NCBI RefSeq assembly: GCF_041248615.1 | Contig: NZ_CP158426.1 | DNA length: 64,000 nucleotides | Strand: one strand, 5' to 3' | Origin: Escherichia coli | Lineage (GTDB): Bacteria > Pseudomonadota > Gammaproteobacteria > Enterobacterales > Enterobacteriaceae | Part shown: positions 32,501 through 35,215 of the stretch, in pieces | How positions within the stretch are numbered: the stretch's first letter is position 1 | Layout: each line of letters starts with the position of its first letter | Position numbers: made by a program

Positions 32501-35215
32501 ACGATGCTCTACAGCGATGCCCTGGATCAACGACTGGCGATGTTTAAATCAGGCAAAAATGGGCCACGCATAAAAGGTAATTATTGATATCAAAGGCCCA
32601 TGGGGATCGGCTGTGGGCCTGTGTTAATTAGTGGTTATTCGCTGCCAGATCGGCTTCGCTTAGCTGGGTGGCTGCGAGCACCAGGTCACGATCAATGCCC
32701 TGTACCAGCATGCGCAAAGCAATTTTAATGGCTTGTTTACGCATACCTTCCTGCAAACCTTCTAATTTACCCTCCTGCCAGCCTTCAAGCTTACCTTCCT
32801 GCCAGCCAATCTGATGCCCTTCCTGCCTCAGCCGTTCAGCAATAGTCATCAATCTCTCCTTTTAATGACAGTTCGGAATATCAGCATCAGTGAGTTGGGT
32901 TGTCGCCAGCACAATCTCACGTTCAAAGCCCTGCTCCAGCATGCGCAAGGCAATTTTAATGGCTTGTTCATGCATGCCTTCCTGCAAACCATCTAATTTA
33001 CCTTCTTGCAAACCTTCTAATTTACCTTCCTGCCAGCCTTCAATCTTACCTTCCTGCCAGCCAATTTGATGCCCTTCCTGCCGCAGCCGTTCAGCAATAG
33101 TCATTAATCTCTCCTTTTGTAGTGGTGAACGTTCGGCAATCTCCTCAATAAAACGGGTGAAACGGGAGGTATCGCCGCATTGCAGCAGATAATTAAACAG
33201 CGTTTGTAGCTGGCTGTCATTAGTGAAGCCTCTAACCAAAAGCGTGGTGATCCTGTCGACCATACCGATTAAATCGCGGTCGCGAATATGCTTTTGAATC
33301 AGTTCAAGCAGAGCTATACGCCGATGTTGCATGATCTCATCGTCAGGTACGATGGTGATATCCACCAACGGAAAAGCTTCGGTGTACAACTGCCGGGCAA
33401 GTTGCGGATCGTCAAACTCATCCAGCCAGTTGAGTGAGTACGGGTAGGGCGAGGTTTCGCCATGATAAAACAGCAATGGCACCACCAGCGGAACTCTGTC
33501 ATAGCCTTTATCCAGGTGACGCTGCATGGCGGCAGTGGCATAGCGCATTAGCCGAAAAGCCATATTCTTTTCTGCAGAGCTTTGATGTTCAATCACGCAG
33601 TAGATATAGCCTTCACCGTCGCTGGTTTCCACAGACCACAAAACATCCGAGTAGTAAGCGCGTAAACTTTTTTCAATAAAGCTGGTGGGTTCCAGGCGTA
33701 AAGTTTGCAGGTTGCAAAGCTTGCGCAGCGGCTCTGGTAGATGTATTTCCAGAAAATCCCGAGCGGTTTCGGGTGTGAACATAAAGGTTTTAAACACCGC
33801 ATCATGCGGGGAGGAGGTTGTTGATTCGGTCATGGTTGTCCGTCACCTGATATTTATGATGACGCGACATTACGGTTATCCCAGGCCTTTGACATCTGCC
33901 AGTTTCAGCCTTTGCGAGACGTTTTCAGAGGAATTTTCACTGCGTTGCAACGCATACATTGGGCACGGAATCGTGTACGCAAAAATGCCCGGTAACAACA
34001 TGCTTACCGGGCATCAGAAAGGAGTTTAAGCCAGCGCCTGGGCCAGCAGCGTAATCGGATGTTCGCAGCGAAGACTTGTGGACATCTCAATCTGCCATTT
34101 GCAGGTTTCGCAGTCGGTAACCACCAGATCTGCGCCGCTTTCTTCTATCTGACGGAACAGTGGTGCGCCGATGGCTTGTGAGGTGGGGTAGTTCTCTTTT
34201 TTGAAACCGTAAGTACCTGCAATACCGCAGCACTGGGAATCCAGCACCGTTAACTCAAGCCCCGGGATTTTACGCAACAGCTCCAGGGTGTAGAGCGTCC
34301 AGCCCATTTTTTCCATATGGCACGGAGTGTGATAAACCACTTTCAGCGGCAGCGGTTTCAGCGGCAAGGTTTTGCCTTCGTCCAGCTTGCGCCACAGCCA
34401 GCGGGTCGCCAGTTCGATGTGATCGCGCAAGCCTTTGTTGTCGACATTCAGCACTTCCGGATATTCGTCGCGCAGGGCAAATGTACAGGTTGAGGAGGTG
34501 GCAATCACCGGAATGCCTTTTACTCCCACTGCTTCGCGGATCGACTCTACATTTGTGATTGCCTGTTTACGTGCTTTATCGGTAAAGCCGTTGGCGATCA
34601 GCGGTACGCCGCAGCATTTTTCTTTGCTGAGCAGTTGTACACCGGTACCCATTGCGTTGAGCACTTTAATTAAATCTTTGCCTAACTGCGGATGGTTGTA
34701 GTTAACGAAGCAGCCGTGAAAGAAAGCCACCTGGTCTTTATATTGTGCCTGCTGGGCTGCCACGCTGCGATACCAGCGACGGAACGTACCGAAGGAGTAT
34801 TTCGGTAGCGTGCGGCGATGATCGATTTTTAACGCCGCATCAAGCAGCTGCCGCACTGGTTTCAGCGAGGTAGCGGTATTGACGATTGGTGCGAATGGCG
34901 TGGAAACGCTACCCATCAGGTCGGTATGACTCAACACAAAATTGCGCAGCGACGGGCGTGTGGTGTCATATTTCGCCCGCGCGCGCTGGATGATATCGCC
35001 AATCTTCACATCGGACGGGCAGGCGACTTCGCAGCGTTTGCAGTTGATGCAATATTTCAGCGCTTCGTCATACAGTGCGCCATCTTTCAGACGCAGACGC
35101 TCGCCATCCGGCCCGGCTTGTTTTGGCCCTGGATAGCCGGGATTCACCCGGCTCACCGGGCAGGCGGTGGTGCAGACGGTGCACTTAATGCAGTTTTCGA
35201 AGCTGGTGTCGTTCA

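Follow-up and report, generated by a model that had tools for sequence, protein, structure and literature searches.

In the preprint of Meydan et al. 2019 (10.1101/520783), Ribo-RET peaks were reported at in-frame internal starts in all five rpn genes of Escherichia coli K-12, and the internal product of rpnE was likened to an independent gene, ypaA, with a stated identity of 98%. Zhong et al. (PNAS 2023; PMC10400941) subsequently described these internal products, RpnS, as antitoxins of the full-length nucleases, RpnL, with which they form a 2:2 complex, and toxicity, SOS induction and DNA cleavage were blocked; SPA tagging in that work also supports the internal starts of the rpn genes. The RpnA-S structure (7TH0) is a dimer of three-helix bundles whose contact is made through the long, repeat-bearing first helix, and the number of repeats sets the specificity of RpnS; one extra repeat in RpnC-S or in RpnC-LS abolished inhibition unless it was present in both. 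For the same authors ypaA, which they call "rpnESs", encodes RpnE-S a second time downstream of rpnE; its SPA-tagged protein was detected in K-12, and the legend of their Fig. 2E lists ribosome-profiling tracks for rpnE-ypaA. A similar copy was found after rpnC in some strains, independent origins were inferred for rpnCSs and rpnESs, and rpnSs genes were reported to be lost in some cases, either through a deletion or because they become fused with the rpn body. A commentary on Zhong et al. 2023 noted that a second copy decouples toxin and antitoxin. Here we describe the rpnE and ypaA genes in a stretch of 64,000 nucleotides (nt) of E. coli DNA (contig NZ_CP158426.1), hereafter called the window, in which the last part of rpnE is tandemly duplicated. 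The feature is the known rpnE-ypaA (rpnE-rpnESs) locus, and in our view YpaA is probably an expressed RpnS paralogue and a weak or non-cognate partner for RpnE. The arrangement itself is already described, and what is new relative to the main text of Zhong et al. is the age and polarity of the duplication, the repeat mismatch and the exchange between the copies.

The repeat search of the window returned two overlapping pairs of direct repeats, 32744-32863 versus 32999-33118 (95% over 120 nt) and 32649-32807 versus 32880-33038 (82% over 159 nt). When aligned on the minus strand with MAFFT, the two copies show a mean column identity of 85% with one 24-nt gap, which is equal to two 4-residue repeat units, and the matched stretch begins about 25 nt upstream of the Shine-Dalgarno sequence and ends at the GAT codon lying six codons before the ypaA stop. 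From the repeat search, the alignment and the reading of the junction, the upstream duplication unit was placed at 32880-33140 (261 nt) and the downstream unit at 32649-32879 (231 nt), both on the minus strand, with the first ~18 nt of the downstream unit now forming the last five codons and the stop of rpnE (IPNCH plus stop). Pairwise alignment revealed that both copies include the Shine-Dalgarno sequence AAAGGAGAG and the ATG. Comparison of the small open reading frame (ORF) with the protein of 323 amino acids (aa) encoded by the large gene gave 57/81 identities (70%) with RpnE residues 244-323 at E = 8e-35 (BLASTP), and the likeness of the small ORF to the rpnE tail is therefore not due to chance. 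The last ~250 bases of rpnE (~230-260 nt) are thus tandemly duplicated, giving ypaA. The sequence-only reading, which had reported a direct repeat of 32628-32855 with 32862-33110 and proposed that the 3' end of an Rpn nuclease gene had been duplicated in tandem, is confirmed by this alignment and by the protein match; its name for the free-standing small ORF, ypaA, is the one used by Meydan et al. 2019 and Zhong et al. 2023, and its mention of an in-frame, C-terminal Rpn small protein that counteracts the nuclease agrees with the findings of Zhong et al. 2023.

The large gene (32862-33833, minus strand) is rpnE (yfaD), which encodes the full-length PD-(D/E)XK nuclease RpnE-L of 323 aa and bears the RefSeq gene name rpnE in identical loci. 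The protein scores 718 bits against the NCBIfam equivalog NF007418 (cut-off 583) and 418 bits against the RpnA model, while residues 8-209 correspond to Pfam PF04754 (Transposase_31 / PD-(D/E)XK; E 6.4e-88) and TIGR01784 gives 174 bits. The residues equivalent to RpnA D11, D63, E82, Q84, R94 and D165, which are those mutated by Kingston et al. 2017, are all kept at the same residue numbers (6/6). The gene order is glpC - rpnE - ypaA - yfaU (rhmA), and megablast located the locus in 5,420 of the 5,426 complete E. coli genomes, chromosomal in every case. By homology, the large gene belongs to the Rpn (YhgA-like, PF04754) recombination-promoting nucleases, specifically RpnE/YfaD. Since Kingston et al. 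2017 equate RpnE with YfaD and RpnB with YfcI, the label rpnB under which the parent gene was first read is a misnomer, as the RefSeq name and the position between glpC and yfaU also indicate. PADLOC holds no model for RpnE or YpaA, and its sole match was a meaningless 18-bit "invertase".

The RpnE tail contains an in-frame internal ORF, rpnE-S (32862-33104, minus strand), of 80 aa from Met244, recognized from the sequence and from the published Ribo-RET and SPA evidence, with the Shine-Dalgarno sequence AAAGGAGAG at 33109-33117 and the ATG at 33104-33102. The stretch AAAGGAGAGATTAATG lies ahead of rpnE Met244 and AAAGGAGAGATTGATG ahead of ypaA, and an MT[ILM]A start is conserved across 62 Enterobacterales Rpn tails. 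ypaA (rpnESs) itself extends over 32628-32849 on the minus strand and, judged from its ORF, its homology and the literature, is a free-standing gene for an RpnS-type small protein of 73 aa plus stop. The length of 74 aa given in the sequence-only reading holds only if the ORF is counted from the TTG at 32852; the ATG at 32849, which is the start homologous to the internal start of rpnE, gives 73 aa. The ypaA Shine-Dalgarno sequence AAGGAGAG at 32854-32861 abuts the rpnE stop codon (32862-32864), so that the end of rpnE and the start of ypaA read CAT TAA AAG GAG AGA TTG ATG. With a gap of 9-12 nt, and with no terminator-like site found between rpnE and ypaA, ypaA is most likely transcribed together with rpnE and translated from its own Shine-Dalgarno sequence, and translational coupling of the two genes is possible. 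A G+C-rich hairpin of 10 pairs, detected by the terminator scan at 32594-32620 between the convergent yfaU and ypaA, is likely a terminator shared by these two genes, and it is also located 3' of single-copy rpnE in other species. The Rfam scan of 32300-34200 at E<=1 gave no match, and therefore no known RNA element is involved. The Shine-Dalgarno sequence and ATG of ypaA were intact across all of the approximately 40 loci read, the lone Shine-Dalgarno variant being AAAGGAGAA in L033 (L-numbers are the labels of the compared loci, with L002 being K-12 BW2952), and the exact YpaA sequence of the window was found in at least 1000 public contigs. Translation of ypaA is shown, from the literature, for the K-12 allele only.

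YpaA homologues carry the precomputed Pfam assignment PF27070 (HTH_Rpn_C), YpaA matches positions 244-308 of NF007418, and a phmmer search with YpaA found the RpnA-S crystal chain 7TH0 at E = 0.004. The AlphaFold2 model of YpaA, built on 39 Rpn tails, has a mean predicted local distance difference test score (pLDDT) of 81.5, with helices predicted at residues 3-49, 54-61 and 65-69, and its best Protein Data Bank match by Foldseek was again 7TH0, with a probability of 1.00, a template modelling score of 0.74 on the target and a weak E of 0.029. Four 4-aa repeat units were recognized in YpaA at 32745-32792 (minus strand) by reading of the sequence and by Tandem Repeats Finder, which reported an array with a 24-nt period and 2.7 copies at 32744-32807; the units begin at residue 20, right after the same-type invariant WQEG at residues 16-19. 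In the RpnE tail, six such units lie at 32973-33044 (minus strand), where the same program reported a 24-nt period and 3.4 copies at 32977-33057. According to Zhong et al. 2023, the variable 4-aa repeats of RpnS start 8-20 residues after the initiating Met. YpaA accordingly combines homology to an Rpn tail, a Shine-Dalgarno sequence and start of its own, variable repeats and a predicted three-helix fold, and the model suggests a protein of the RpnS type with three helices, the long first one bearing the variable 4-aa repeats. NCBIfam FliH and Pfam Yae1_N matches were dismissed as compositional, both of them falling on the charged 4-aa repeats. Two plus-strand ORFs at 32668-32814 and 32890-33069 ("PSCQPS/PSCKPS") were likewise rejected as genes, being mirror-frame artefacts opposite the 4-aa repeat arrays.

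A comparison with the described systems reveals that ypaA/rpnESs of K-12 resembles that of the window in the locus (glpC-rpnE-ypaA-yfaU), the junction, the Shine-Dalgarno sequence with ATG and the encoding of the RpnS tail twice. However, the K-12 allele differs in having an RpnE-S of 56 aa with 0 repeats and a YpaA of 61 aa with 1, against 80 aa with 6 and 73 aa with 4 in the window, and the YpaA of the window reads MRKQ...LVQG where that of K-12 reads LHEQ...LEQG. In K-12 (L002, 469-654 and 667-1566), the 56-aa tail and the 61-aa YpaA share 46/61 positions (75%) by BLASTP, not 98%. Within the window, YpaA and RpnE-S agree in residues 1-19 and in most of the helix-1/2 core, while 9/17 positions differ in the helix 2-3 region, and against the MHEQ...LEQG of RpnE, YpaA (MRKQ...LVQG) shows the changes H->R, E->K and E->V. 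The RpnS antitoxins RpnA-S, RpnB-S, RpnC-S and RpnP2-S are like YpaA in the HTH_Rpn_C domain, the start motif, the helix-1 repeats and the predicted three-helix fold. Unlike these intragenic RpnS proteins, YpaA is encoded by its own gene and is therefore not forced to co-vary with the toxin. The rpnCSs of some E. coli and a copy in Rahnella bruchi are also like ypaA, being independent tail copies directly downstream of the parent with, in the genomes sampled, a differing repeat number, though rpnCSs belongs to a different paralogue and a separate duplication.

RpnE of the window carries six four-residue units and YpaA four, and among 18 distinct allele pairs only one has equal numbers (4 versus 4, in the L035-L041 haplotype), with ~1.1 equal pairs expected by random pairing; the expectation was taken from 16 script-scored pairs, while L129/130 and L139, both unequal, were scored by eye. 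The repeat number of YpaA alleles ranges from 0 to 5, and the exact YpaA of the window pairs with a 6-repeat RpnE here and with an 8-repeat RpnE in ST2747-like strains. That RpnE and YpaA are never equal, as the first 8 pairs had it, was rejected on account of the 4 versus 4 haplotype. The repeat numbers of RpnE and YpaA are uncoupled, and equality is not avoided. Among approximately 75 other Enterobacterales loci scanned, downstream copies of the gene's own tail were found in two other Rpn genes, rpnC of E. coli SCPM-O-B-8794 (L100; 83% identity to the parent) and a gene of Rahnella bruchi (L082; 62%), the former having one unit fewer than the parent tail and the latter four more.

The distribution of the duplication was assessed with a 108-nt probe that covers the junction together with the 3' end specific to rpnE on one side and the start of ypaA on the other, with at least 80% coverage required. 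The junction was detected in 3,133 of 5,426 complete E. coli genomes (about 58%), so the duplication is common but polymorphic, and universality, which the sequence-only reading had listed among the findings against its idea of a second dose, is not observed. E. coli, E. fergusonii (L029) and the cryptic Escherichia clades (L031, L033) share one junction, GAT followed directly by ATTCCGAACTGT(C/T)ATTAAAAGGAGAG, and this points to one old duplication event. The locus was read in about 60 genomes, and in every duplicated locus among them RpnE ends in ...FEREIVLA(T/A)TQL(T/S)DADIPN(C/G)(H/Y) and YpaA in ...DRD(Q/L)VLAATQLSEADLAANNH or a near variant, each followed by the stop. The outgroup scan, with one genome per species, located a single-copy rpnE adjacent to glpC in E. 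albertii, two other Escherichia species, several Citrobacter and Salmonella enterica subsp. diarizonae, and these syntenic tails are of the YpaA type (IDRDLV...; ...AANNH in S. diarizonae), which shows that the ancestral 3' end, with its terminator hairpin, is the one retained in ypaA. Judged from these outgroups, the present C-terminus of RpnE (FEREI...IPNCH plus stop) is derived, and the last five rpnE codons and stop appear to come from the segment preceding the internal start. All single-copy E. coli alleles read have the YpaA-type end. L013 combines an RpnE-type array with the end typical of YpaA, and L003 corresponds exactly to a recombinant between the two copies of K-12; at least some single-copy E. 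coli alleles are thus secondary deletion-fusions, in agreement with Zhong et al. The single-copy rpnE of E. coli SCPM-O-B-8794 (L048) has a hybrid tail in which helix 3 is RpnE-type and the end YpaA-type, and it is therefore read as a deletion-fusion with a crossover only ~8 codons from the stop.

Selection on the two copies was analyzed in nine haplotypes from four Escherichia lineages with the repeats excluded. The pooled ratios of nonsynonymous to synonymous polymorphism (pN/pS) were 0.23 for ypaA, 0.05 for the rpnE tail and 0.08 for the rpnE nuclease domain, and ypaA evolves as a coding gene under purifying selection. When the two copies within a genome were compared, synonymous divergence (dS) was 0.1-0.4 over the first 35 non-repeat codons and ranged from 0.9 to saturation over codons 36-52, with a nonsynonymous divergence (dN) of ~0.3 in the latter, a difference that we attribute to exchange of sequence between the copies. 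A K(I/L)-starting array lies in RpnE of the commonest haplotype (L017, 5 versus 0 units) and in YpaA of L131 (0 versus 5); between RpnE of L017 and YpaA of L131, 161 of the first 165 nt are identical, whereas the next 66 nt contain 28 mismatches. On these comparisons, the copies recombine with each other over their 5' two-thirds, a part that includes the repeats, while the 3' third stays copy-specific, so that each copy is also a sequence donor or acceptor for the other. At codons 36-52 (about 32649-32699 and 32880-32930), the copies stand at dS >= 0.9, against only ~0.12-0.21 between E. coli and E. fergusonii orthologues, a divergence too large to have built up in place after a duplication specific to Escherichia. 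A homologue in Klebsiella spallanzanii has a tail (GFERELV..QLSDDD) similar to the FEREI...QLTDAD motif, and the upstream (RpnE) end may therefore have been imported.

In the course of events that we favour, an old tandem duplication copied the last ~230-260 nt of rpnE along with the internal ribosome-binding site and the RpnE-S ATG. The downstream copy kept the ancestral 3' end and the terminator and became the stand-alone ypaA, and the upstream copy, which remains joined to the nuclease domain, gained a new C-terminus (FEREI...IPNCH plus stop) across the junction. We infer, in addition to co-transcription, a binding partner and an effect on RpnE: YpaA would act by helix-helix oligomerisation with Rpn C-terminal domains, like other RpnS proteins, and would modulate the toxin/antitoxin balance of RpnE. 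In this strain YpaA departs from the RpnE tail in two repeat units and in 30% of its residues and is for that reason probably a weak or non-cognate partner, and the published RpnC rule, under which a mismatch abolishes inhibition, makes a simple "second dose" of cognate antitoxin doubtful. That YpaA is instead a fully cognate antitoxin, a second dose of RpnE-S which keeps RpnE-L silent, is in our judgement unlikely, though it would fit the shared first 19 residues and helix-1/2 core, the protein made in K-12, the haplotype with matched arrays of 4 versus 4, and the fact that RpnE, the sole K-12 paralogue with such a copy, is also the sole one that is non-toxic on overexpression with its catalytic residues intact. 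It is opposed by the repeat numbers, which are 6 versus 4 here and unequal in 17/18 allele pairs with equality at chance level, by the loss of RpnC inhibition on a one-repeat mismatch, and by the differences in the helix 2-3 region together with the H->R, E->K and E->V changes of the window allele. Equally doubtful is a further reading, in which ypaA is no redundant antitoxin but an RpnS paralogue, uncoupled and in most cases non-cognate, with which the rpnE tail recombines; the locus would be a two-cassette device resetting the specificity helix of a toxin-antitoxin defence gene, and YpaA might meanwhile be a decoy for a phage factor or a titrant of RpnE-S; the array moves (5 versus 0 and 0 versus 5) and the deletion-fusions of the nuclease to the ypaA tail are compatible with it.

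Several observations weigh against an expressed, weakly matched RpnS paralogue, and some of them would suit a decaying duplication remnant, a pseudogene with no function of its own. ypaA is absent from ~42% of complete E. coli genomes, its constraint is looser than that on the rpnE tail (pN/pS 0.23 versus 0.05), frameshifted variants occur in some lineages (e.g., SRSGSE tails, P0118 on 57 contigs), and NCBI flags the gene as a pseudogene in L001 and many other loci. These flags, however, arise because a short ORF is compared with the full-length Rpn model, and the remnant reading is further countered by an ORF, Shine-Dalgarno sequence and ATG that are intact in E. coli, E. fergusonii and the cryptic clades, by a pN/pS well under 1 and by the protein detected in K-12; we consider it very improbable. 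The remaining points concern expression and action. A sigma-70 consensus scan of 32500-34100 on both strands found no promoter, nor did it locate the internal promoter reported from differential RNA sequencing. Our literature search found no experiment on YpaA binding or inhibiting RpnE-L and no later paper testing YpaA function. K-12 RpnE has been inactive in every overexpression assay (Kingston 2017 among the sources), and there may therefore be no toxicity to modulate; alternatively, RpnE could have been inactive because the antitoxin covers it strongly. As for the mismatch rule, it was derived from one experiment on RpnC, and RpnE may not obey it. With these points counted, YpaA as an expressed but probably weak or non-cognate RpnS paralogue remains the reading that we hold to be probable.

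The annotation of both genes varies among the compared records. In many genomes, including L006-L012 and L015, NCBI flags ypaA as a pseudogene ("hypothetical protein; incomplete; missing N-terminus"), and the flag is also carried by L001 at 3069-3302, which is identical to 32628-32861 of the window. Newer records name the small gene "Rpn/YhgA-type helix-turn-helix domain-containing protein". The pseudogene label conflicts with the published toxin-antitoxin function, and so does the older NCBI annotation of RpnE as an "ISNCY family transposase". In strain UTME-10 (L016, 760-1988), rpnE is interrupted by an IS2 that sets its nuclease part apart from the tail. Structural variation extends to the side facing yfaU: the records of several strains with a single-copy rpnE (L004, L013 and L016; positions 1-428 or 1-353) list yfaU as an "aldolase/citrate lyase family protein" truncated at its N-terminus, and the downstream rhamnonate genes have given way to an IclR fragment and a MoCF_biosynth gene in E. 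fergusonii and Escherichia sp. E4385.

Toxin-antitoxin and phage-defence proteins of the Rpn family are widespread, and because their antitoxin is encoded within the toxin gene itself, toxin and antitoxin are forced to co-evolve; a stand-alone RpnS copy such as ypaA breaks this coupling. Should RpnE obey the mismatch rule, it would follow that YpaA is not just a spare antitoxin, and the sharper question raised by the locus is whether YpaA is cognate or non-cognate, when its repeat number does not track that of the toxin even though the repeat part is exchanged between the two genes.

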